This document shows, piece by piece, positions 5,007 to 36,009 of a DNA stretch of 64,000 bases. The stretch is from a virus. Its lineage: Duplodnaviria > Caudoviricetes. The notes under the pieces were generated by a model, which was not told where the DNA came from, made no database searches, and saw only the letters and a list, made by a program, of their open reading frames with translations. The first letter of the stretch is position 1; the number at the start of each line of letters is the position of its first letter. Both the position numbers and the translations under genes were made by a program. Location of the stretch: positions 96,001 through 160,000 of IMG/VR virus record IMGVR_UViG_3300028048_000045. One strand, written 5' to 3'.

Positions 5007-7124
5007 TTACATTGAAATCATTGAATTCTGAGCCATATAAGCTGCACCAGTTTCAAGCTGTTTCAACTGAAGAGCTTCAAGGTCCATGTTTGGTGAAAGT
5101 AATGTAATCATATTACCTACAGTCAACAAATCACCTACAGTTTCAAGAATGATTTTGATAAGACATGCATCTGTTTCTTTTGGAACAATCAATGTTGTAC
5201 AATTGTCAGGATCATTTCCATCAAACTGTTCAATCATGTTTGTCATGATATTGTAAACAGATGGTGTTTCTTTTTCAATACATTCTCTCCATTTAGCCAT
5301 AGTTTTCTTAGAATCGCGATACATATTAAACAATGCATAACGATAACCATTACCAAATGAGAATTCAATAGATTCAAGAATCAATTTTACAATCTGACGA
5401 ACATTACTATAATTTTCAGCAGCAGTAATATTGAGTTTAGCATCTGTAATCTTCTGCATAATTTCATCAACGAGATTGTTGATATTATGCTCGATATAAT
5501 GACAAACACTGATATTACTTCCGATTGAAACTCCACCATTTTTGATAGCAGATGAAACTGCCTGAACAGCATCATCAATGATGAGCTTTCTTGCATACTT
5601 AGCATTGTCTGTACGTCCGCCACAATAGTAGTAAGTTGTACGAGACTGAAGCTTTTCAATACGCATATTAAGATCTGCAACTGTCCAATCATTGAAATGA
5701 TTTGTTGCTTTCTTAAGAGCTACAAGCTTATCATTAAGCATAGCAATTTTCTTATCAAATTCTTCTTTAACAGGATTTGTACCAATGAAGTTAACATCAG
5801 CATAACCAGCAGAAATATGTTCACATGTACCAAACATTCCTTCAATCTGTTTACAACGTGTTTCACGATCTTCTGCAAATGGAGAAAGTTTAGTATACAT
5901 TGTCTGGAATGGATTAGCACGTACCATCATTCTGAGATCATCAAATTCTGCAGCGTCAGCAATTTCTTTGTTACGAAGAACGATACAAGCGATATCGACT
6001 CTAGCTGGACGAGAATCTGGATCAGATTTAGGATCGTTAAGTTCCTGACCAAGAGAATTGTAATAAGTACCAGAAATACATTTGCGAAGATAATCTGCAA
6101 TATCTTTATCGTACTGTGGTGCAATTACAAACAATGGTCTATGCATATCAAATGCGACTGTTTGTACAATCTGTTTAAATACTGGAAGGTCTGTAGCATA
6201 AAGATTACCATCAAACATGGCAATCAATGGTTTATCAGCTTCCCATGAAGTCTTATCAGGTGTATTAGCCATAGCTTCAAGATCAAGCAATCCCATTGAA
6301 AGTACATAAGCATCGCTTTCTTTTACATATTCTTCTTCAGTATTTGAACGGAGAACAATTACATCACCGCGACCATCAAGTTTGTTTTCATAAAGTCTTG
6401 CAATTCTTTCACCAGTCAAATAATCATTGTTTGCTGAAATAGTTGCAATCTTAGAAAGCCACTTAATGATTTCTTCTTTTTCTTCTTTAGTAAGTTCATC
6501 TGATGAATTTACTTTTTTGAAAGATTTCTGATAATTTGGATTATCGCGGATGTGACTAATGATAACATCGCCACAAATCTTACAAATGTTTCGAATACCA
6601 ACTGGAGAGAATTTCCATCCACCTTCGTTAGAAGTTTTGAAAATTTCTACGAGTTTAGTATAAAGAGCATTCTGAATAGGAATACCAGATGATGTAGAGT
6701 CACCAATCTTTTCATTCATATATTCAGAAGTTTGACGAATAATTTTGAAAATAGCATTAGGAATAGGCTGTGTAAACTTCATATTCTGAAGAATTGTATA
6801 ACCATCCCTAGTATTATAAACTGGAACTTCCCGAGTATAATATGTTTGAACTAATGTGTTATCAGCATAAGGACCAATTGTGTGAGCTATGGCTGTTTCT
6901 GCAGCAGCTGAAATCTTTTTAATTTCATTAACAACCGCATCATTTTTCAAAATATTTGGGTTTGAAGATTTGTAATCCTTTGCCCCGAAACCAATATCAG
7001 AAATATTCATTTCCTGGAAATCACCACTAAATGATTCTTTAATTATACTTTCAGGAGAGTTTTCCAGTTTATTATCGATTTCATTAGCAAATTTTTCCAT
7101 TTCGGCAGAATTTATTTCTCCCAT
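5007..7124 (-). CDS. Phage chaperonin, GroEL/Cpn60-like
   Basis: HTIGPYADNTLV (TLGPxG), TRDGYTILQ (TxDGxTI), GDSTSS (GDGTTT), ATISANND, YYCGG...IIDDAVQAVSSAIKNGGV. Confidence 0.9.
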   Translation of the reverse strand: MGEINSAEMEKFANEIDNKLENSPESIIKESFSGDFQEMNISDIGFGAKDYKSSNPNILKNDAVVNEIKKISAAAETAIAHTIGPYADNTLVQTYYTREVPVYNTRDGYTILQNMKFTQPIPNAIFKIIRQTSEYMNEKIGDSTSSGIPIQNALYTKLVEIFKTSNEGGWKFSPVGIRNICKICGDVIISHIRDNPNYQKSFKKVNSSDELTKEEKEEIIKWLSKIATISANNDYLTGERIARLYENKLDGRGDVIVLRSNTEEEYVKESDAYVLSMGLLDLEAMANTPDKTSWEADKPLIAMFDGNLYATDLPVFKQIVQTVAFDMHRPLFVIAPQYDKDIADYLRKCISGTYYNSLGQELNDPKSDPDSRPARVDIACIVLRNKEIADAAEFDDLRMMVRANPFQTMYTKLSPFAEDRETRCKQIEGMFGTCEHISAGYADVNFIGTNPVKEEFDKKIAMLNDKLVALKKATNHFNDWTVADLNMRIEKLQSRTTYYYCGGRTDNAKYARKLIIDDAVQAVSSAIKNGGVSIGSNISVCHYIEHNINNLVDEIMQKITDAKLNITAAENYSNVRQIVKLILESIEFSFGNGYRYALFNMYRDSKKTMAKWRECIEKETPSVYNIMTNMIEQFDGNDPDNCTTLIVPKETDACLIKIILETVGDLLTVGNMITLLSPNMDLEALQLKQLETGAAYMAQNSMISM

Positions 7125-16267: not shown

Positions 16268-16654
16268 TTAGAAATTACTACTAGATGTTTGATCTGGAAG
16301 AACTTTATCCAATATAACTTCTCCACCATAAATAATTCTATCCCAAGCAAGTTGGGATTTTTGAACATTTAAACGTTCCAATTCAAGTTCTTGCTGCCGT
16401 ATCTGTTCACGTTCTTCGAATTCCGCTTTTCGAGCAGCTTCTCTTTCAGCAATGTGAACTTTTTCAGTTTCCAATCGACTTTTGTTCTGTTCTTTAATTT
16501 GTTCAATAAGATTATTAGCTATAGCTTCTCTAGCTTTGTTTTGTTGTTCTAATAAAGCTTTAAAACTTTCAGGATTAGTTTTAGCTAATTCTAATTCCTC
16601 GGGTTCAAGTTTCATTTGAAAACTATTTGTTTTTCGATCGAAAATAAATTTCAT
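16268..16654 (-). CDS. Early small coiled-coil protein, paralog of 22072..22359
   Basis: EELELAKTNPESF versus EELELAKANPEAF; shared promoter-hairpin leader. Confidence 0.7.
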   Translation of the reverse strand: MKFIFDRKTNSFQMKLEPEELELAKTNPESFKALLEQQNKAREAIANNLIEQIKEQNKSRLETEKVHIAEREAARKAEFEEREQIRQQELELERLNVQKSQLAWDRIIYGGEVILDKVLPDQTSSSNF

Positions 16655-17554: not shown

Positions 17555-17607
17555 ATTTACCACCTCATTATTATAATATACAAAATAACTAATTAATTTA
17601 CAAAAAA
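17552..17607 (-). repeat. Type B early leader repeat (second copy 21961-22017)
   Basis: About 55 nt near-identical: TTTTTGTAAAyTAATT..TTATTTT(T)GTATATTATAATAATGAGrTGGTAAATATG. Confidence 0.8.
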
Positions 17608-17644
17608 AAGAGAGGGATTTGTTCCCTCTCTTTTTAACATGTAT

Positions 17645-17971
17645 TCAGACCACAATGTACACCTGACTTGCCATATGATATACTCTATTACATTGTATAG
17701 TAATAGCATTGATATTTTCATATTTATGATATTTACTATTATAATGGTTTATAATCTTCGGTTGAATAGTTGCTTTTGTTCTCACAAAGTTTACAACGTA
17801 GTAAATATCACCGGTTTTCAGTTTTACAATTTTAAACATCAAGTTTTTTCCAGAATTTTTCATACGATATAATTCTGGATAATGATCTAAATAACCAATT
17901 TCGTTCAGAATAAATGCACCAGAACCATCTGGAACACATTCTAATTCTTCTTTAAGTAATTTTATTTCCAT
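17645..17971 (-). CDS. Early hypothetical protein
   Basis: 108 aa, GAGGAG RBS, own early motif (17998) and terminator (about 17609-17633). Confidence 0.7.
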   Translation of the reverse strand: MEIKLLKEELECVPDGSGAFILNEIGYLDHYPELYRMKNSGKNLMFKIVKLKTGDIYYVVNFVRTKATIQPKIINHYNSKYHKYENINAITIQCNRVYHMASQVYIVV

Positions 17972-18044
17972 AAACTTATTTATCTCCTCATTTTTATAAT
18001 ATATAAATAAAACTAGGGAATATTTTTTCCCTAGTTCTAATTAT

Positions 18045-18800
18045 TTATTTTTTATCATATTCAGATCTAATCATATTTCTTAATTTTTCAATTTTCAAAT
18101 TATCCGTAAATATGTAAGTGTATTTATGAGCTATTTTATACATAGTGCGTTTCTTTTTATCTCTTTTAAGAGCACGAATCGTACTAGTTATACCAGCAGT
18201 TCCTTTGAAAATTATAGGATAAGTTTTAAGCTGCTCATAATTAATGATATTATCTTTATCATTTAATGATAACCAAATTTGAACGCCTTCAACTATTATT
18301 TTATGAGATAATTGTTTATTCATAATATAATTTATAAATTCTTCAGCCAAATCATAACATTTGTGTTCATTTCTATGTAATTTAGCATATTCGTTTTCTT
18401 TAAAGAATTCACAAATTATAGGATCTATTTTATTAAAATCTGAATCGGTAAACATATCTGGAGTCATAATATCATCCAATTGTATTAAACTACAATGATA
18501 TTTTTTAGACAATTCTCCACCTAATGTAGTTTTACCAGAACCAGAAAAACCAGTTACAAATAAAATATTATAGTTACCATTTTCAAATTCTTTTAATTTA
18601 TAACATTCATCATCAATTGTAAAAATTAAATTTTCATTAGATTCTTCAGCTTTATCTAAATCAGGATCTTCATGACCATTGTTACAGTCACCGAGTTGAA
18701 AATCTCCAACAGTTTCTACACCTTCATCCGGTCCAAAAAGACCTTGAGAACATGCGTAAACATTCATTTCAGTAGCAAATATTTTATCATTATTAATCAT
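18045..18800 (-). CDS. P-loop nucleotide/polynucleotide kinase with head-protein propeptide
   Basis: Walker A GFSGSGKTT, IQLDD, IIVEG, RALKRD lid; N-terminus MINNDKIFATE...DPDLDKAEESNE. Confidence 0.75.
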   Translation of the reverse strand: MINNDKIFATEMNVYACSQGLFGPDEGVETVGDFQLGDCNNGHEDPDLDKAEESNENLIFTIDDECYKLKEFENGNYNILFVTGFSGSGKTTLGGELSKKYHCSLIQLDDIMTPDMFTDSDFNKIDPIICEFFKENEYAKLHRNEHKCYDLAEEFINYIMNKQLSHKIIVEGVQIWLSLNDKDNIINYEQLKTYPIIFKGTAGITSTIRALKRDKKKRTMYKIAHKYTYIFTDNLKIEKLRNMIRSEYDKK

Positions 18801-18811
18801 AACTATTTTCC

Positions 18812-19705
18812 TTATTTAGAAAAATCTAAAACAACCATATTTATTAACGATTGTGTTGTACCATGATGATCACCGCCCCAAGTTTTTTCATAATAAATTT
18901 TATTTGGTTCTAACTTAGGTTTATTTCCATCTTTCCATTGTTCATATTCTGTCATAGGAATATTCATTTTATTACAAGTATCTTCGACGACCTTATCAAA
19001 TACTTTATCAAATTTAGTGGTATCCGAATCATCATAAGATTCATCCAATGTATATCGTTTTAAACCATCTAAACCAAATGAGTATTGTTGTACAAGAATT
19101 TCTACTTTTTCTTTATTTTGAATAGCTTTAGCAATATCTATACATTTATTCCATAAATGCGTAGATAATTCATTATATTGATCGCTATCATCTTCACAAT
19201 CGTAAATAGCAATATAATGTTTAGGATCAATTTTACTTATTTCATTTTTTAGAATTGGAACAACAGTTTTGCCAAATTTATTAGCTAAATTCAATGTTCT
19301 AGTTATTTCATTTTGCAATCGTTTTAACTCGGGATGATTTTTTATTTGTTCGAAAGCAGCATCTTCAGCTTTTCTTTCTTCTTTATATTTTTCATAGCGT
19401 TGTTTAGATAATTCTTTTTCTTTTGCTTCTTTACGTTTTAATAAATATTTGTATAATGGTGTTTTTCTATAAAGAGGTAGAATTATATATGCTAAAAGAC
19501 ACCATGCTAAAGCCACAGCACCCAACCCAATTTGAATTTTTTCAAGTATATTAGATTCTTGCGACTGTTCATTATCTAAATATTTATCAAGATCTGGATC
19601 TCCAGTAGTTCCTGTTTCAGGATCATACCGTCGCTCAGCTAATCTTTTCAATTTTTCTTCTATAGTGAAAGATTCGCAAGAGAATATCTTATCATTATTA
19701 ATCAT
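18812..19705 (-). CDS. Putative head protein with propeptide and single TM helix
   Basis: MINNDKIFSCE...DPDLDK...SQESN, then IGLGAVALAWCLLAYIILP and a coiled coil. Confidence 0.6.
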   Translation of the reverse strand: MINNDKIFSCESFTIEEKLKRLAERRYDPETGTTGDPDLDKYLDNEQSQESNILEKIQIGLGAVALAWCLLAYIILPLYRKTPLYKYLLKRKEAKEKELSKQRYEKYKEERKAEDAAFEQIKNHPELKRLQNEITRTLNLANKFGKTVVPILKNEISKIDPKHYIAIYDCEDDSDQYNELSTHLWNKCIDIAKAIQNKEKVEILVQQYSFGLDGLKRYTLDESYDDSDTTKFDKVFDKVVEDTCNKMNIPMTEYEQWKDGNKPKLEPNKIYYEKTWGGDHHGTTQSLINMVVLDFSK

Positions 19706-20160
19706 TGTTGTACTCCATAAGCTTTTTTAAAAGCATCAATAAATATATTCCAACCAGGAAATCCTGGAAAACTTCTATCATCTAAATAATAATCAGCATA
19801 AATCTTTTTTGAAGGTTTAAAATTTATACTATCCGAATTATCATTAGCTTTTGTAACTTTAATACCATTAGCCAATAAAAATGCTAATGCTTGTTTAAGA
19901 TATTCGCCATCTCTACAAGTCCATAAAATAATTTGAACTCCAAAAGATTGTAAAAACTTTATAGATTCGATAGCATTCGGTTTAACTTTACCAATTTTTG
20001 GAAAAGTATCATCGACAATTGTACCATCGAAATCTACAGCAAGTATCAGTTTATCACTAGGTTTATTAAAGTTACCAATAGAAAGGCCGGTAGGATTTAA
20101 TATAGTTATAGGTTCAGTGTTCATAACTTCATATGAAAATAATCTATTATTATTGATCAT
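19702..20160 (-). CDS. HAD-superfamily phosphatase (BT0820-like, capless) with propeptide
   Basis: AVDFDGTIV, ILWTCR, KIYADYYLDDR; start reassigned to MINNNRLFSYE. Confidence 0.8.
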   Translation of the reverse strand: MINNNRLFSYEVMNTEPITILNPTGLSIGNFNKPSDKLILAVDFDGTIVDDTFPKIGKVKPNAIESIKFLQSFGVQIILWTCRDGEYLKQALAFLLANGIKVTKANDNSDSINFKPSKKIYADYYLDDRSFPGFPGWNIFIDAFKKAYGVQQ

Positions 20161-20905
20161 CTTTGTCACCAAAATCTATATTACCGTAATCATTTCCAGA
20201 GAATTTAACCTCTAGACCAGCAGCTTTGCAGAAAACTTCTGTAGTATTAACTGCCTGTTTATTGTGAGTTCGAATATCCAAATCAGATAATCTAACATCA
20301 CCAGTTGATACAATAGTATTCAACATTTGTTGTTTACTTATTTGATCATCTGCACGAGGACCAAGGAATTCTTTAAGAGCATTAGTTTGATTTGTTGCAG
20401 CTAACGCATAAGTCTGAACGTTTGTAGTAGAAGCAGTTTTATCTTCTTGTACAACCTGACCAGTCAATGGGTTAATATGATCACTACTATTAGAAATAGA
20501 GTTTTTATGTTGCAACATCTGCTGGAAGAATCGTCTAATTGGACAGTAAATAATTGGTACCTTTGTTAATGTACACATTGGTTTGCCTCTAGGATTTCTA
20601 AAAGGCATAAATACATATTCGAATAAACCGATCTTCCATTTATCAGCAATAGCTTTAATCTTTTCAAGAGTCATATTATCAGACTTTTTCTTTTCAAGTT
20701 GATTAATATCTATAAAAAGATTTAAATCATCCTGCTCTATATATTTCTTCATCAAATCAATGAATTGTTTATCTGACATTTTAGCAAAAGCTATTCTATA
20801 AGTATCAGCATTAAATCCTGAAGGATCAATATCATCCATTAATTTGTAAATATTTTCTTCATACTTTTTACGTATTTTTTTAAACTGTTCAGCAGAAACT
20901 TTCAT
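20150..20905 (-). CDS. Virion RNA polymerase beta C-terminal subunit
   Basis: RRFFQQMLQHKN...INPLTGQV...ALKEFLGPRADD matches the beta C-terminal (TxQP / ExLT.KSDD) region; in a late operon. Confidence 0.8.
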   Translation of the reverse strand: MKVSAEQFKKIRKKYEENIYKLMDDIDPSGFNADTYRIAFAKMSDKQFIDLMKKYIEQDDLNLFIDINQLEKKKSDNMTLEKIKAIADKWKIGLFEYVFMPFRNPRGKPMCTLTKVPIIYCPIRRFFQQMLQHKNSISNSSDHINPLTGQVVQEDKTASTTNVQTYALAATNQTNALKEFLGPRADDQISKQQMLNTIVSTGDVRLSDLDIRTHNKQAVNTTEVFCKAAGLEVKFSGNDYGNIDFGDKDDQ

Positions 20906-21354
20906 TATATAATAATCCTCCTACCATAGTCATAGGCATAATTTATATAGTCGTAACTTTCGAGAGATTCATCCATTTCATTAAATTCATAACAAAAATA
21001 ACGAATCTTTTCACAAGAATAATTATTAGTCATTATCTTAGCCAAATTATATTTTAAAGCATTTTCTTTATTATGAAAATGCTTAATTTTATTATCATCA
21101 GTTCTAAGATAATAACCCGATTTATCAGAATAAATCGAAAAGAAATAAGATTCAACTGATCTATCCCAATTACCACTATCTATTTGCAAGACATACGAAT
21201 CTTGTTTTATGTGTTCTAAGGATAACATTGAATCTTTTAATTTATCAAATGAATTTTGGTTTTTATGCTTATTTGTAAAATCTTTAATAGTACTATAAGC
21301 GTATTTAGGTGTAAATTCATATGATTCGAAACTAAAAATTTTAGCCAAATTCAT
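20905..21354 (-). CDS. Putative head protein
   Basis: N-terminus MNLAKIFSFES like the KIF-S-x-E family; first gene after late promoter 21383. Confidence 0.55.
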   Translation of the reverse strand: MNLAKIFSFESYEFTPKYAYSTIKDFTNKHKNQNSFDKLKDSMLSLEHIKQDSYVLQIDSGNWDRSVESYFFSIYSDKSGYYLRTDDNKIKHFHNKENALKYNLAKIMTNNYSCEKIRYFCYEFNEMDESLESYDYINYAYDYGRRIII

Positions 21355-21382: not shown

Positions 21383-21396
21383 TATATAGAAATGTC
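21383..21396 (-). promoter_or_regulatory. Late promoter GACA-N6-TATA
   Basis: GACA TTTCTA TATA heading the 21354-18045 operon. Confidence 0.7.
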
Positions 21397-21963: not shown

Positions 21964-22071
21964 ATTTACCATCTCATTATTATAATATACAAAAATAAAC
22001 AATTAGTTTACAAAAAAGAACCTGAGATTTATTCAGGTTCTTAAATTGAAAATTATTTCAATTTCAGCAAT

Positions 22072-22359
22072 TTACTCATTCGAAAGTTGCGTGTTATCAC
22101 ATATAATAGACATAATACATTTTGTTCTCGATTCGAACATTTGATAAGTTTTCTCATGTTCTATTTTAGATTTTTCAACTTCCATTTGTTGCAATTCAAT
22201 TTCTTTTTCATGAACAAGTCTTTCAGCATCAATCGATTTTAATAAATCTCTTTTATAATTGATATAATTGGTAAATGCTTCCGGATTAGCTTTAGCAAGT
22301 TCTAATTCTTCTTTAGTCAATCCGATACCACTAATATTAGATGTTTTTAAATCATCCAT
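22072..22359 (-). CDS. Early small coiled-coil protein, paralog of 16268..16654
   Basis: EELELAKANPEAF; type A leader; own terminator. Confidence 0.7.
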   Translation of the reverse strand: MDDLKTSNISGIGLTKEELELAKANPEAFTNYINYKRDLLKSIDAERLVHEKEIELQQMEVEKSKIEHEKTYQMFESRTKCIMSIICDNTQLSNE

Positions 22360-31916: not shown

Positions 31917-34175
31917 TTATACTTCTACATAATTAAAAGATTTAGCAAAAGCTTTACCTTTATGAGCGATAACTGTAAAGTTAACATTGTTGATAATAAA
32001 CTTAGCAACGTTTTTCTTATAACCACTAGTCTGTAAATCACTATCGGCATTTCTATCGATTTCATAATCAATCTTAACACCAGCAATTGATGAATAGTAT
32101 CTTGCGTTATTATCATTAGTGAACATTGCTTCCATAAGCTTAATAAGAACAATCTGTAACTTATCAGCATAATTAAATGTGTTCATATTAGATTGATTAT
32201 AATTGAAAATCTTAGTTTCATAATTAGCGAAACCTGAAAGACTTGTAAGCGGTCTAGCATCTGTTGTACCGAAAGCTGTACAGATCAAAGGCATTGGATA
32301 TCTTAAATCTAAGCTATTCTGACCAGAAGTTTCCTGTCCATTAAGTGAACCGATGTGAATAAATTCAAGAGGAAGATTTTTCTGTTTTTCTCCAGAAGAT
32401 ACAAGAGAAGCTCTTCCGTTTGAAGCGTATTCGAACAAACTGAATACACCATTAAGATTTTTAATCTGATCATGAGCATCTTCGATATTAGCTGTCCCAA
32501 AATAGTTATTAGGATCGAATCTATCACCAAGACTATTAATCAGTGTATTAGTTGGAATAATATAAACTTCTGTTGTAGTGAACAATTCAGGATACATCTT
32601 AGATAAGAACATATCGAGATCTGTATCACTATGTCCAATATAAGTAATATTTCCATCATCATCGTATTGCATTGGATGACAATGACCACTTGTATGAAGA
32701 CGTTTAATATAATCCTTTACAGCAGTAATCTGTTGTGCTAATGTAGGAGCCTGTGCTTCACTACCATAGAAAATATAGAATTTCTGCATAATGGAATGAT
32801 GTACAGCATCCCAAATTAAATTCTTTCTGTTTTTAGAATCAATAGTAGGTGTAACACGTAAAGTCTGGAACTCTTGATAATATTTATAAGTTCCATCCTT
32901 CATAATATTTGTAATAGCCTGGATTATATTTTTCTGGAATTCAGATTGAGATGTAACGAAATTGTTTTTAAGTGTTGTTGATTCAGATGCAACATTAGCA
33001 TAATCGTTATCATAAATTCCATAGTTATCATCAGCTGCACCTTTAGCACCATCCATATCTTCATCATTATATGTGTATACAGCATATTGTGCTACACTAG
33101 ATGAATTAATGAATGCATCAGGATCGAGATAACAAACAATTACCCAAGTCTTAGAAATAGTTTCAGTATAATTAGCTCTTACTTCAAAAGAGAATTTCTT
33201 AATACGTCCTTCTTTAGATGAAGGTTCAAAGTTAGCAGTTCCGTAAACATACTGAAGATTAAGAACTTCAGAGTTATAGAACATTTCCTGTTCTTCATCA
33301 ACAGAAAGAGTTTCACCATCAGCGTGACGAAGAGTATCATCTCCAGTCATTTCCTTCCAACGGAAAGGATTGTATTTAATTGTACCATTAGCAATAACTT
33401 CCTCACCAGATTCATATCTAGTCTGGAAATGTTTACTATTATCTGTACATTTACCAATGAAAAGTGAAATAAATCTTCCAATTTCAGATTCAGTGTCGAG
33501 ATCACGTTTCATAGCGGCTACAGTATCAGAACTACCGTACCAAGATGAAAGTTTTTCATCAGAAGCATTTCTAATAAACGATGGATATTTAAGTGAACTA
33601 TCAACATACATATTGATAATTTCAGATTCATACTTCTTAATGAATTCACAAATAGTATAAATCTTCTGCCAGAAAATATGTTCAAGAGGATAAATATTAT
33701 TTTCGTATTTTCCGCCAGATTTAAATAATTTTACATTTTCTAATGTATAAGTTTTACCATTGAAAGTTGTATAGTTAGGATCAATATGATCAACAAAACG
33801 TGTTGGTTCAGTAACCTCATTAGACATTACCTTACCATTATCGAGAATAATAGATGATAGATATTCTTGAGATCTATCATTGCGGATATTAAGTCCTGTT
33901 CTTTCACTTTTGGCCGAAATACCATTTGATGAATCGCTGTACAAGCTATACAAATTATCAATCTGTTTAGGATTAGTAGTTCTAATCAATATATCTTTAA
34001 TACTTGTATCAAAGATAGCTGTTTGTGCGAATGTTCCATCACCAGTATTATCATATCCAAATTTATCAGAAACTACCTGATCAATAGGATAATCTTTGGA
34101 ACCTTTAACGTAAAAGAAGAATTTTGCTGTATTAGCTAATGATGTACCAGTAGCATCAATTATATTCTGAGCCAT
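31917..34175 (-). CDS. Putative virion structural protein
   Basis: 752 aa, late promoter AACA TTATTA TATA at 34199-34212. Confidence 0.55.
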   Translation of the reverse strand: MAQNIIDATGTSLANTAKFFFYVKGSKDYPIDQVVSDKFGYDNTGDGTFAQTAIFDTSIKDILIRTTNPKQIDNLYSLYSDSSNGISAKSERTGLNIRNDRSQEYLSSIILDNGKVMSNEVTEPTRFVDHIDPNYTTFNGKTYTLENVKLFKSGGKYENNIYPLEHIFWQKIYTICEFIKKYESEIINMYVDSSLKYPSFIRNASDEKLSSWYGSSDTVAAMKRDLDTESEIGRFISLFIGKCTDNSKHFQTRYESGEEVIANGTIKYNPFRWKEMTGDDTLRHADGETLSVDEEQEMFYNSEVLNLQYVYGTANFEPSSKEGRIKKFSFEVRANYTETISKTWVIVCYLDPDAFINSSSVAQYAVYTYNDEDMDGAKGAADDNYGIYDNDYANVASESTTLKNNFVTSQSEFQKNIIQAITNIMKDGTYKYYQEFQTLRVTPTIDSKNRKNLIWDAVHHSIMQKFYIFYGSEAQAPTLAQQITAVKDYIKRLHTSGHCHPMQYDDDGNITYIGHSDTDLDMFLSKMYPELFTTTEVYIIPTNTLINSLGDRFDPNNYFGTANIEDAHDQIKNLNGVFSLFEYASNGRASLVSSGEKQKNLPLEFIHIGSLNGQETSGQNSLDLRYPMPLICTAFGTTDARPLTSLSGFANYETKIFNYNQSNMNTFNYADKLQIVLIKLMEAMFTNDNNARYYSSIAGVKIDYEIDRNADSDLQTSGYKKNVAKFIINNVNFTVIAHKGKAFAKSFNYVEV

Positions 34176-34707: not shown

Positions 34708-36009
34708 TTAGAACAGATCAGCAAGCTGTTCATTAGACATAGTCTTTGCACCAAAAGCATCCTGAAGTGCAGCGGCATCTTCTTTTACAGATGAGAAACC
34801 TACTGATTCAGATTTAAGAACTTCTGCTTTCTTTTCGTTTGATTCTGTCAAACGACGAAGATTTGCACGGAGATCTTCAACTACAGCATTCAATGAAGTG
34901 AAACCAAAGAATCCAATCATAGATTCTTCAATGAGATCTTTAGAAATAGAATCTACTCCATTGATACTCATCTTATCAATTTCAAAGAATACAGACATGA
35001 TGTCGCGAGACATAATGTCATAGTTTGTACGAATCTGCTTAGCAGCTTTTTCTTCTGCACCATCTTCAGTAAACTTAAGCATTTCAACAATACGTTTACA
35101 AGACTGTCCCTGTGGAATTGTGAACTGGAATTTGTTTTCATTGCTGATTGAAAGGAATGCTGAACATCCAGGGATACGAAGTGTGTTTACTTTATCCTGA
35201 AGATCCATACATTTCAATGATGAGTTCATTTCAATTCCAAGGAATTTGAGAATAGGCATAGTAATTCTCGCATTGATGATACGATACATTTCATCAGTAT
35301 TTGTATATTTAACTGATGAAGGCAAATTGTTATCAGCGATGAAGAAGTTAGCCAATCCCTTATCAATTGCATTCTGGATATCAACGAAACATTCAATTGT
35401 ATTCTGAAGATTCTGCTGACCTGCTGATACAGAACATTTTGGAACAAGACCGATTACAACTGGACGTGGAACTGTATTGGTGAGATCATCAATTACATAT
35501 TCCTTTCCATTGTATGAGAACTTCTCAGCCTTATTAACATAGTTAGTAAGGTAAGTTGTTAACATAGGTCCAATTCCAGAACCAGTACCACCATCAGCTG
35601 AGAAACAGTTGATAATGATTGTCTGTACTTCAGGATGGAACAGAACTTCTTCATAATAAGCTACGAATGTCTGAAGAGCATCGAATTTCTGTCCCTGGAA
35701 ATCTGCAGAATATCCTTTGAAGTATGCTTTTGCACGGTTTCTGTTTTTACCAGCACCATCAGCATTAGCACCTCCGATCTTGAATTTCTGAGCATCAGGA
35801 AGGTTCAACTGATCAAGATCCTGATCACTTGTGTTAACAGCAATCAGGTATGGGTTATTTGGTAAACAACTCTTAAGAGTCATACCAATGTTAGCTCCAC
35901 CCTGACCTTCGGTAATGATTACGAATCTTACCTTCTGTCTTGCCTTAGCCTGTGAGATTACAGGTTCTTCATTTCCAGCTGCAGCTGATTTTACATTTTC
36001 TTCTGCCAT
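34708..36009 (-). CDS. Tubulin/FtsZ-family GTPase (PhuZ/TubZ-like)
   Basis: GQGGANIG, AVNT, GAGKNR, signature GGTGSG, DNN, T7 loop DLQD; helical C-terminal tail. Confidence 0.9.
   Translation of the reverse strand: MAEENVKSAAAGNEEPVISQAKARQKVRFVIITEGQGGANIGMTLKSCLPNNPYLIAVNTSDQDLDQLNLPDAQKFKIGGANADGAGKNRNRAKAYFKGYSADFQGQKFDALQTFVAYYEEVLFHPEVQTIIINCFSADGGTGSGIGPMLTTYLTNYVNKAEKFSYNGKEYVIDDLTNTVPRPVVIGLVPKCSVSAGQQNLQNTIECFVDIQNAIDKGLANFFIADNNLPSSVKYTNTDEMYRIINARITMPILKFLGIEMNSSLKCMDLQDKVNTLRIPGCSAFLSISNENKFQFTIPQGQSCKRIVEMLKFTEDGAEEKAAKQIRTNYDIMSRDIMSVFFEIDKMSINGVDSISKDLIEESMIGFFGFTSLNAVVEDLRANLRRLTESNEKKAEVLKSESVGFSSVKEDAAALQDAFGAKTMSNEQLADLF

Follow-up and report, generated by a model that had tools for sequence, protein, structure and literature searches.

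Four adjacent late genes of an uncultivated jumbo phage open with a near-identical peptide of 10-11 residues that ends in [I/L]-F-[S/A]-x-E, and the proteins behind it are unrelated: the protein p149, a HAD phosphatase, a membrane protein and a P-loop kinase-like protein. What would one N-terminal peptide do on such different proteins? A preliminary description of the locus had drawn attention to the peptide and proposed that it is a portable targeting and cleavage tag, through which diverse proteins become a modular payload of the head. We have followed up this proposal in the window (the whole 64,000-nucleotide stretch that was analysed, positions 96,001 to 160,000 of IMG/VR record IMGVR_UViG_3300028048_000045), in the 276-kb genome and in related phages.

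Organization of the putative cargo operon

An ORF check placed p149, the C-terminal piece of a split RNAP beta subunit, the HAD phosphatase, the membrane protein and the kinase in five ORFs, every one on the minus strand, and neighbouring genes either overlap or are separated by an 11 nt gap (Table 1). The promoter-like motif upstream of p149 fits the AR9 late consensus AACA-N6-TA (PMC5312081). The corresponding pattern, [AGT]ACA[AT][AT]NNNATATA, has 50 matches in the genome, 40 of them at most 130 nt upstream of a gene on the same strand; it precedes, among others, virion structural genes, the scaffold/capsid operon and the gene of the prohead protease. At the other end, the terminator-like hairpin appears from its sequence to mark the end of the transcription unit; the gene beyond it has a promoter motif of the early type. 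The earlier view that these genes form one late operon agrees with the late-type promoter motif, which is of the kind found on the capsid and protease genes, and with the hairpin at the end. A megablast search of the region against GenBank phages gave zero matches.

Table 1. Features of the operon in window coordinates; a slash marks the predicted cut
Feature	Position	Strand	Leader	Remarks
Late-type promoter-like motif	21383..21396	-		GACATTTCTATATA; 42 nt 5' of p149
p149	20905..21354	-	MNLAKIFSFE; codons 1-10 at 21325-21354 (KIFSFE/S)	149 aa, conserved
C-terminal piece of split RNAP beta subunit, virion type	20150..20905	-	untagged	phrog_3233, E 6.5e-41
Cap-less small HAD phosphatase (DFDGT)	19702..20160	-	MINNNRLFSYE; codons 1-11 at 20128-20160 (RLFSYE/V)
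Single-pass membrane protein	18812..19705	-	MINNDKIFSCE; tag 19673-19705	TM helix residues 59-77
P-loop kinase-like protein	18045..18800	-	MINNDKIFATE; tag 18768-18800	predicted mature body from residue 54
Second kinase leader module	18642-18767	-	Y-A-C-S-Q-G-x-F ... DPDLDK-AEE/S
Intrinsic terminator-like hairpin and T-run	18008..18039	-		13-pair stem; 6 nt past kinase stop codon

A short leader enriched at protein N-termini

The leader has the consensus M-I-N-N-D-K-I-F-[S/A]-x-E, with Ser, Ala or Gly at P3 and Phe at P4. A six-frame scan of the whole genome with M-x-N-N-x-[KR]-[IL]-F-[SA]-x-E, which the preliminary description had suggested as a check, found three matches, all at the starts of these genes. 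In the predicted proteome (84.8 k residues) there are 12 occurrences of the shorter pattern [IL]F[SAG].E, six of which end at residue 8-15, where 0.28 would be expected (binomial P 1.3e-7); in 2000 shuffles the mean number of N-terminal occurrences was 0.24 and the maximum 4. The six carriers are the four proteins of the operon together with two from elsewhere in the genome, an acidic core-like protein and the prohead protease itself, and in every carrier the Glu is residue 10 or 11. An N-terminal F-[S/A/G]-x-E was also seen in an RNase H-like gene (genome 88635-89258) and in a GroEL-like gene; it is not kept in the G002 orthologue of either and was treated as chance. In IMG/VR, the exact MINN-type pattern matched a 99% relative only, so that this spelling of the leader is species-specific.

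A second shared element, DPDLDK followed by [A/S]-x-E/SN, had been reported for two of the proteins. We found it again in these two, the kinase with its predicted cut behind E53 and the membrane protein with one behind E50, and the rest of the genome lacks it; the full leaders of these proteins are 53 and 50 residues long, the latter ending at 19556 (SQE/SN). The start of the RNAP piece, MKVSAE, had also been pointed out, but its orthologues start with MLPDEK, MVSKEK or MRIMTMEPAK. Because the start varies in this way, MKVSAE is not a leader.

Proteins encoded by the operon

A tblastn search with the RNAP piece found homologues in phiR1-37 and in Erwinia and Cronobacter jumbo phages, where their annotation is that of virion structural proteins. 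In four lineages an orthologue of p149 adjoins the RNAP piece; the p149 leader retains [S/G]-x-E in just two of the four, and the other two are without the Glu. The AF2 model of p149 has a pLDDT of 77, with residues 1-16 scoring below 50, and the leader is predicted to be disordered. A fold search with p149 against PDB found nothing at E <= 0.001; the fold resembles papain/transglutaminase-like folds weakly, without a conserved Cys-His pair, and an Atlas search returned its own cluster alone. As an idea only, p149 could serve as the adaptor by which the virion RNAP enters the head.

The phosphatase is assigned to the HAD family by phrog_1238 (E 8.5e-26) and PDB 2obb (E 2e-38). A Shine-Dalgarno-like GGTGA accompanies its ATG start at 20160; an in-frame TTG is present at 20172. 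Close orthologues retain M-I-[ND]-x-x-x-I-F-[ST]-x-E, one of them with Thr at P3; 13 distant homologues have no leader and start 2-20 residues ahead of DFDGT. For the kinase, the P-loop match is sub-threshold only (AAA_18, 28.1 bits; cut-off 29.4). Kinase homologues without a tag begin at positions equivalent to residue 52-55 of our protein, and residue 4 of one of them, P0093, aligns with our residue 55. Since the untagged kinase and HAD homologues begin near the predicted cut, cleavage would restore native N-termini.

Kinase and phosphatase belong to general enzyme families. We considered that together they might be a split polynucleotide kinase-phosphatase (HAD against phrog_415, E 7.6e-4); this found no further support, as L055 has the HAD protein without the kinase. 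Neither the membrane protein nor p149 matched PHROG or Pfam, and a related-locus search with the membrane protein returned no relatives. In these comparisons the four tagged proteins showed no homology to known inner-body or ejection proteins of phiKZ or SPN3US.

Prohead protease and major capsid protein

The prohead protease (genome 30352-31230) was located by motif and confirmed via PHROGs and BLAST. It matches phrog_207 (E 1.9e-9) and aligns with a cyanophage T4-like gp21 (E 8e-12) across the catalytic motifs GELxHPD and SxR; a Pfam Peptidase_S77 search of the phage genome found nothing. Its N-terminus holds NIFSCE-10 and MFSIE-25, and in comparison with a 58%-identical orthologue residues 1-25 are nearly invariant and the following 30 variable. 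The protease of T4, gp21, has an analogous N-terminal site, LIE-9, which was proposed to act in the manner of a T4 capsid-targeting sequence (CTS) (PMC9026906).

The major capsid protein (genome 38677-40641) was identified by fold, with Foldseek matches to its counterparts in the jumbo phages S6, phiKZ and phi-kp24 (E 7e-11 to 3e-10); a PDB sequence search with it returned nothing. Its family comprises 70 clusters. It starts without the leader. Within the protein, F49/E52 and E107/G108/W109 are invariant in 28 homologues (54-90% identity) and form two [S/G]-x-E/GW sites, which match S/A/G-X-E, the motif that the proteases of phiKZ, 201phi2-1 and SPN3US cut (PMC5694885, PMC10052503). The motif is present and conserved, and cutting after it would be expected from the sequence.

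Exchange of protein bodies behind constant leaders

Two strain-level relatives can be aligned with the operon as far as 19673, the base that completes codon 11 of the membrane-protein tag, and the match of the kinase to L055 ends at 18640, codon 53 of its leader. The cargo sets of G000, G001 and L055 differ; L055 is without a kinase and bears tags on three different membrane proteins, and in it the same membrane-protein body stands behind a 22-residue leader. The leader of the kinase is found on four other bodies at 93-100% identity. Among close relatives there are at least nine leader-bearing bodies mutually without BLAST similarity. These alignments show a hypervariable cargo locus in which the leader is constant and bodies are exchanged at the leader boundary.

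The second module of the kinase leader is mobile in another way, being N-terminal, C-terminal or a free ORF in relatives. Its core reads Y-A-[C/S]-S-x-G-x-F ... I-G-G-Y, always with [S/A/G]-x-E ahead. It is N-terminal on the kinase and the p284 family and C-terminal on a p149 homologue, a membrane protein and a kinase variant; the free form is a peptide of 55-74 residues. A profile search with the module also returned P0190 and P0206, which are repeat proteins without the core motif and were set aside as false positives. The module resembles the N-arm of the capsid protein weakly (E 0.0014 and 0.0055 among 661 proteins), a similarity that a search of 1.8 billion proteins did not recover at E <= 0.001. 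Tentatively, and with the odds against it, the module might be a position-independent capsid-docking element of ~40 residues that mimics the mature capsid N-arm, inserts cargo via a capsid-subunit contact and is removed by the protease; the partner in this contact could be the scaffold or an adjacent capsid protein. We know of no phage for which packaging by mimicry of the capsid protein has been described.

Probable function of the leader

We think it likely that the leader is a capsid-targeting and prohead-protease cleavage sequence similar to the T4 CTS, in a jumbo phage related to AR9 and phiKZ. The earlier proposal of a portable tag on unrelated proteins is supported by the tagged protease, the capsid sites, the boundary-exact swaps, the untagged homologues and the late promoter, and from these we infer that the tagged proteins bind to the core and are cleaved, packaged and ejected. 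They would be made late, alongside the virion RNAP subunit, and drawn by the leader into the assembling prohead core, beside scaffold-like proteins and the protease with the same leader. This T4 gp21-type protease would cut after the Glu of [S/A/G]-x-E, with Phe favoured at P4, and so free native-like enzymes and membrane proteins within the head, and the freed cargo would exit with the DNA at the following infection. Longer leaders (22 or 50-53 residues) on some cargo would carry a second cut site, and the 53-residue leader, with its module of ~40 residues like the mature capsid N-arm, perhaps a second docking element. Recombination would exchange bodies behind the constant leaders, giving the hypervariable locus. 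In the membrane cargo the TM helix lies a few residues past the predicted cut, as in the ejection protein gp47 of SPN3US; we counted this in favour of the targeting reading, together with the N-terminal enrichment of the motif, the disorder predicted for the p149 leader and the virion-type RNAP piece in the operon. The missing Glu in two p149 lineages and the Thr at P3 of one HAD orthologue count against it.

Alternatively, the leader could be a processing or activation peptide only, removed by the prohead protease or another one, with targeting, if any, due to the longer module or the bodies. Its best-conserved feature is the [S/A/G]-x-E part, the extra module on some cargo could target, and within the T4 CTS targeting and processing residues are separable (PMC9026906). 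A bare cut site, however, needs none of I-N-N-D-K-I-F, which is also kept across unrelated bodies and in HAD orthologues (52-84% identity); moreover, HAD and p149 carry the short tag alone and the protease retains the same N-terminal peptide. We regard a role in processing only as unlikely.

The recombination breakpoints fall exactly at leader ends, and three leaders have 24 nt of degenerate pattern in common, as might be seen if the shared 5' segment acted as nucleic acid (as a site where cassettes recombine, or as a target in translation initiation or regulation) and the peptide were functionless. This is very improbable in view of the codons, which vary synonymously (Ser TCT/TCA/AGT, Phe TTT/TTC, Lys AAA/AAG, Ile ATT/ATC/ATA), including the two-step Ser change TCT/AGT, with the peptide unchanged. 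The DNA 5' of the tagged genes is unalike, and together with the synonymous differences this places the conservation at the protein level. In addition, the protease and the acidic protein bear the motif in other codons elsewhere in the genome, and diverged leaders of other lineages retain F-[S/G]-x-E. Least probable of all is an address elsewhere (a phage nucleus-like compartment, the phage GroEL-like chaperonin or membrane insertion): the genome encodes a GroEL-like chaperonin and a protein that weakly matches PhuZ-like tubulin, and the T4 capsid protein N-terminus sends proteins to GroEL (cited in PMC10052503), but no single one of these destinations fits soluble enzymes, membrane proteins and a head protease, the tag has a protease motif at its end and is less hydrophobic than a signal peptide would need to be, and the capsid protein start is untagged.

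Comparison with known phage systems

Read as a targeting and cleavage sequence, the leader resembles the CTS of T4 IPI-III and Alt, which is also ~10 residues long, stands on proteins that are unrelated beyond it and has as its last residue the Glu at which a gp21-family protease cuts. The two are not known to have sequence homology, and the cut motif here, with a small P3 and Phe at P4, is phiKZ-like, whereas T4 gp21 takes Leu or Ile at P3. We therefore describe the leader as CTS-like in its proposed action and not as a CTS by descent. Unlike T4, this is a jumbo phage related to AR9 and phiKZ that has a virion RNAP; where the T4 cargo is small basic proteins, its own would be membrane proteins, a HAD phosphatase and a kinase, and some of its leaders are bipartite, with a module that may be C-terminal or free. 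As here, cargo at the hyperplastic IP loci of T-even phages varies between related phages and the leader is kept (PMC3012670, PMC9026906).

The proteases of phiKZ, 201phi2-1 and SPN3US (gp175, gp268, gp245) are of the same family and share the motif [S/A/G]-x-E/S; their substrates have several cut sites per propeptide, as predicted here, and their capsid protein has a long cleaved propeptide, of which the like is predicted here too. In these three phages most propeptides are 111-254 residues long and only two are short (20 and 24), and ~80% of the head proteins of phiKZ and SPN3US are uncut (PMC10052503), so that short leaders are unusual among the closest phages that have been studied. Gp53 and gp54, diverged head-protein paralogues of SPN3US, have identical 15-residue N-termini that were likened to a CTS (PMC5694885), but there the shared N-terminus joins paralogues and here unrelated enzymes. 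The ejection protein gp47 of SPN3US has a leader, a cut site and then, within ~10 residues, a TM helix, the same layout as in the membrane cargo, although its propeptide is ~111 residues and gp47 is essential and conserved whereas our membrane proteins are strain-variable; homology between them and gp47 was undetectable. A cassette-like cargo locus such as the one proposed here is not known to have been described in phiKZ, 201phi2-1 or SPN3US.

The system is most likely T4-CTS-like, on unrelated, swappable enzymes and membrane proteins of a gut jumbo phage, with cargo exchanged between strains at single-codon precision. The kinase, the phosphatase and the changing membrane proteins are likely weapons of the first minutes or entry devices. 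If the leader works as proposed, it would give a simple rule for recognizing capsid-borne proteins in an uncultivated branch of jumbo phages, and injected cargo could be read straight from metagenomes. It would also offer a short tag for putting foreign proteins into large capsids, and would carry the principle of the T4 CTS over to phages of the phiKZ/AR9 type, with a bearing on how these recruit their ejection proteins and virion RNAP.

A leader peptide shared by unrelated proteins

The window covers bases 96001-160000 of an IMG/VR viral contig of 276,071 bp (29% G+C, rated 99% complete), to which four uncultivated contigs are related: G001 (99% identity), G002 (263 kb, 62%), and G003 and G004 (59%). 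Five closely packed genes encode, in order, p149 (149 aa), a split RNAP beta C-terminal part (the RNAP piece), a HAD phosphatase, a membrane protein, and a P-loop kinase. All but the RNAP piece, four of the five, start with a 10-11-residue leader ending in [I/L]-F-[S/A]-x-E. The preliminary description had reported nearly the same N-terminal peptide on these four proteins, and the genome-wide scan that it proposed bore this out: the strict pattern matched three times in the six-frame genome, always at gene starts of this operon. The looser [IL]F[SAG].E occurred 12 times in the predicted proteome, with six matches ending at residue 8-15 (expected 0.28, P = 1.3e-7); several looser N-terminal matches were discounted because they are not conserved. 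Since the tagged genes have unrelated upstream DNA and use different synonymous codons for the leader, the conserved entity is the peptide itself.

The DPDLDK segment followed by [A/S]-x-E↓SN (arrow, predicted cut), also described previously, indeed occurs in both the kinase and the membrane protein, where the cuts would fall after E53 and E50, respectively. The start of the RNAP piece, MKVSAE, which had been listed alongside the leaders, is not conserved, and of four lineages only two retain [S/G]-x-E in the leader of p149.

Coordinates of the features discussed (window positions unless marked as genome, which count on the whole contig)
Feature	Coordinates	Strand	Remark
GroEL-like chaperonin	5007-7124	-	phrog_5725, E 1.5e-43
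E-E-L-E-L-A-K-x-N-P-E-[A/S]-F family	16268-16654	-	
E-E-L-E-L-A-K-x-N-P-E-[A/S]-F family	22072-22359	-	
E-E-L-E-L-A-K-x-N-P-E-[A/S]-F family	genome 218418-219636		
Promoter-region repeat	17564-17610; 21964-22010		~50 nt
Early-type motif, example	17972-18007		upstream of gene 17645-17971
Putative cargo operon	18045-21354	-	five genes
752-residue gene	31917-34175	-	late promoter
433-residue protein	34708-36009	-	phrog_4733 E 3.6e-4; Pfam Tubulin below cut-off
Prohead protease	genome 30352-31230		phrog_207, E 1.9e-9
Capsid protein gene	genome 38677-40641		
Large late-promoter genes	genome 73286-86578	+	outside the window; 437-608 residues

Modularity of the proposed cargo

The modularity of this presumed cargo is the strongest line of evidence in this analysis. 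A protein search with the kinase found its 53-residue leader, at 93-100% identity, on other bodies, namely a soluble protein (177 residues) and several membrane proteins (256-290 residues). With the leaders removed, at least nine bodies show no mutual BLAST similarity. In L055, a strain-level scaffold, p149, the RNAP piece, and HAD are followed by three different tagged membrane proteins and the kinase is absent; the G002 operon is without kinase, HAD, and membrane protein. Collinearity by blastn with G001 and L055 ends at window position 19673, where tag codon 11 has its final base, and the L055 match ends where the kinase leader does, at 18640. One membrane body carries leaders of 50 residues in this genome and 22 in L055, which have the same start (the tag) and the same end (NEQSQE↓). 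Separately, in P0075, a 312-aa metagenomic protein, the leader of the kinase plus ~50 residues from the start of its body are joined to a Cys-rich, zinc-ribbon-like protein; this is either a genuine recombinant or a chimera created during assembly.

Cleavage of the leaders at the predicted sites would give back proteins in native form. Kinase homologues without the tag (213-219 residues) begin at residue 52-55 of the tagged kinase, and 13 distant HAD homologues start 2-20 residues ahead of the DFDGT motif. Close HAD orthologues keep M-I-[N/D]-x-x-x-I-F-[S/T]-x-E before a poorly conserved linker, and the first 16 residues of the p149 model have pLDDT <50.

Leader carriers outside the operon

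The two remaining carriers are the prohead protease and an acidic protein. In the alignment of the protease with a T4-like gp21 from a cyanophage (E 8e-12), the GELxHPD and SxR motifs fall at matching positions. The N-terminus of the protease carries NIFSCE-10 and then MFSIE-25; in the G002 orthologue (58% identical) the first 25 residues are almost invariant, but the following 30 are not. T4 gp21 itself has LIE-9 close to its N-terminus, for which a CTS-like action was suggested as possible (PMC9026906). The acidic protein, of 274 residues, adjoins a virion structural gene and has a second, internal KIFSRE site; its orthologues keep an N-terminal F-S-x-E↓[S/D]. Elsewhere in the genome lies a cluster of large late-promoter genes, some paralogous, several of whose products have short N-terminal leaders ending in [F/Y/L]-[S/G]-x-E, which the G002 orthologues keep. 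These proteins are candidates for abundant internal head or ejection proteins.

A second leader module and the capsid protein

Kinase residues 12-53 form a second module with Y-A-C-S-Q-G-x-F and G-D/G-aromatic motifs. A profile search among 1.8 billion representatives yielded ~20 clusters, which sort into four groups. One comprises free ORFs 55-74 residues long; in a second, the module is fused N-terminally to the p284 family, found ahead of the RNAP piece in G002 and G003; a third joins it to other bodies; and in the fourth it sits at the C-terminus, in a p149 homologue, in a membrane protein that also has the tag, and in a variant of the kinase. All seven aligned copies have [S/A/G]-x-E directly before the module. 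Within the four phage proteomes, the sole other matches were the two capsid proteins, with E 0.0014 and 0.0055 against 0.38 for the next-ranked match, in both just past the second predicted cut site. The resemblance is weak, and we take it as a lead.

The capsid protein gene follows an acidic, coiled-coil, scaffold-like gene. The structure of its product, predicted from a 28-sequence alignment (pLDDT 61), gave as top Foldseek matches the major capsid proteins of jumbo phages S6, phiKZ, phi-kp24, and P1 (E 7e-11 to 9e-6), and this fold match identifies it as the major capsid protein. Because F49/E52 and E107/G108/W109 are invariant in homologues (54-90% identity), we recognize two [S/G]-x-E↓GW sites, which lie where a helical N-terminal propeptide ends. 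These putative sites agree with S/A/G-X-E, the established protease specificity of phiKZ, 201phi2-1, and SPN3US (PMC5694885, PMC10052503), with Phe preferred here at P4.

Promoters and genomic setting

A late-type motif, [AGT]ACA[AT][AT]NNNATATA, fits the AR9 late consensus AACA-N6-TA and matched 50 times, 40 of them upstream of genes. Besides p149, it precedes virion structural genes, the protease gene, and the scaffold/capsid operon, among others. Because p149 and the head genes have this motif in common and a terminator follows the kinase gene, the cargo operon is a late unit of the head-gene class. An early-type promoter-like motif, TATATATTAT-N6-G, agrees with AAATATATATTAT-N6-G, the consensus of AR9 early (virion RNAP) promoters; it is abundant genome-wide, mostly before small ORFs and usually directly after a terminator hairpin. 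Copies of a family of small early-promoter genes lie on both sides of the cargo operon, and a repeat (TTTGTAAA ... TGTATATTATAATAATGAG), a variant of the early-type motif, precedes two unrelated genes, one on either side of the operon.

The nearest named relatives of the RNAP piece are in PBS1/AR9-like Bacillus phages (37% identity), Listeria LPJP1, Yersinia phiR1-37, and Staphylococcus jumbo phages, and its homologues in named phages are annotated as virion structural proteins. The phage also encodes a GroEL-like chaperonin. The 433-residue protein has weak tubulin/PhuZ matches, and the nearby 752-residue protein had no family or PDB match; the two could be a spindle and shell pair as in nucleus-forming phages.

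Comparison with known systems

By analogy, the leader system would work like the T4 CTS/internal-protein arrangement, with presumed packaging, cleavage, and ejection. Like that arrangement (PMC3012670, PMC9026906), it combines a leader of 10 residues with a protease of the gp21 family, and its cargo is diverse and its loci hyperplastic. The leader has no homology to the T4 CTS, and the cut motif is of the phiKZ type. In SPN3US, gp53 and gp54 have identical 15-residue N-termini already compared to the CTS; two short propeptides are known in that phage and most exceed 100 residues. What is new here is a single short leader common to the protease, unrelated enzymes, and membrane proteins, together with a cassette-like cargo locus within a virion RNAP operon, bipartite leaders, and a terminus-independent module.
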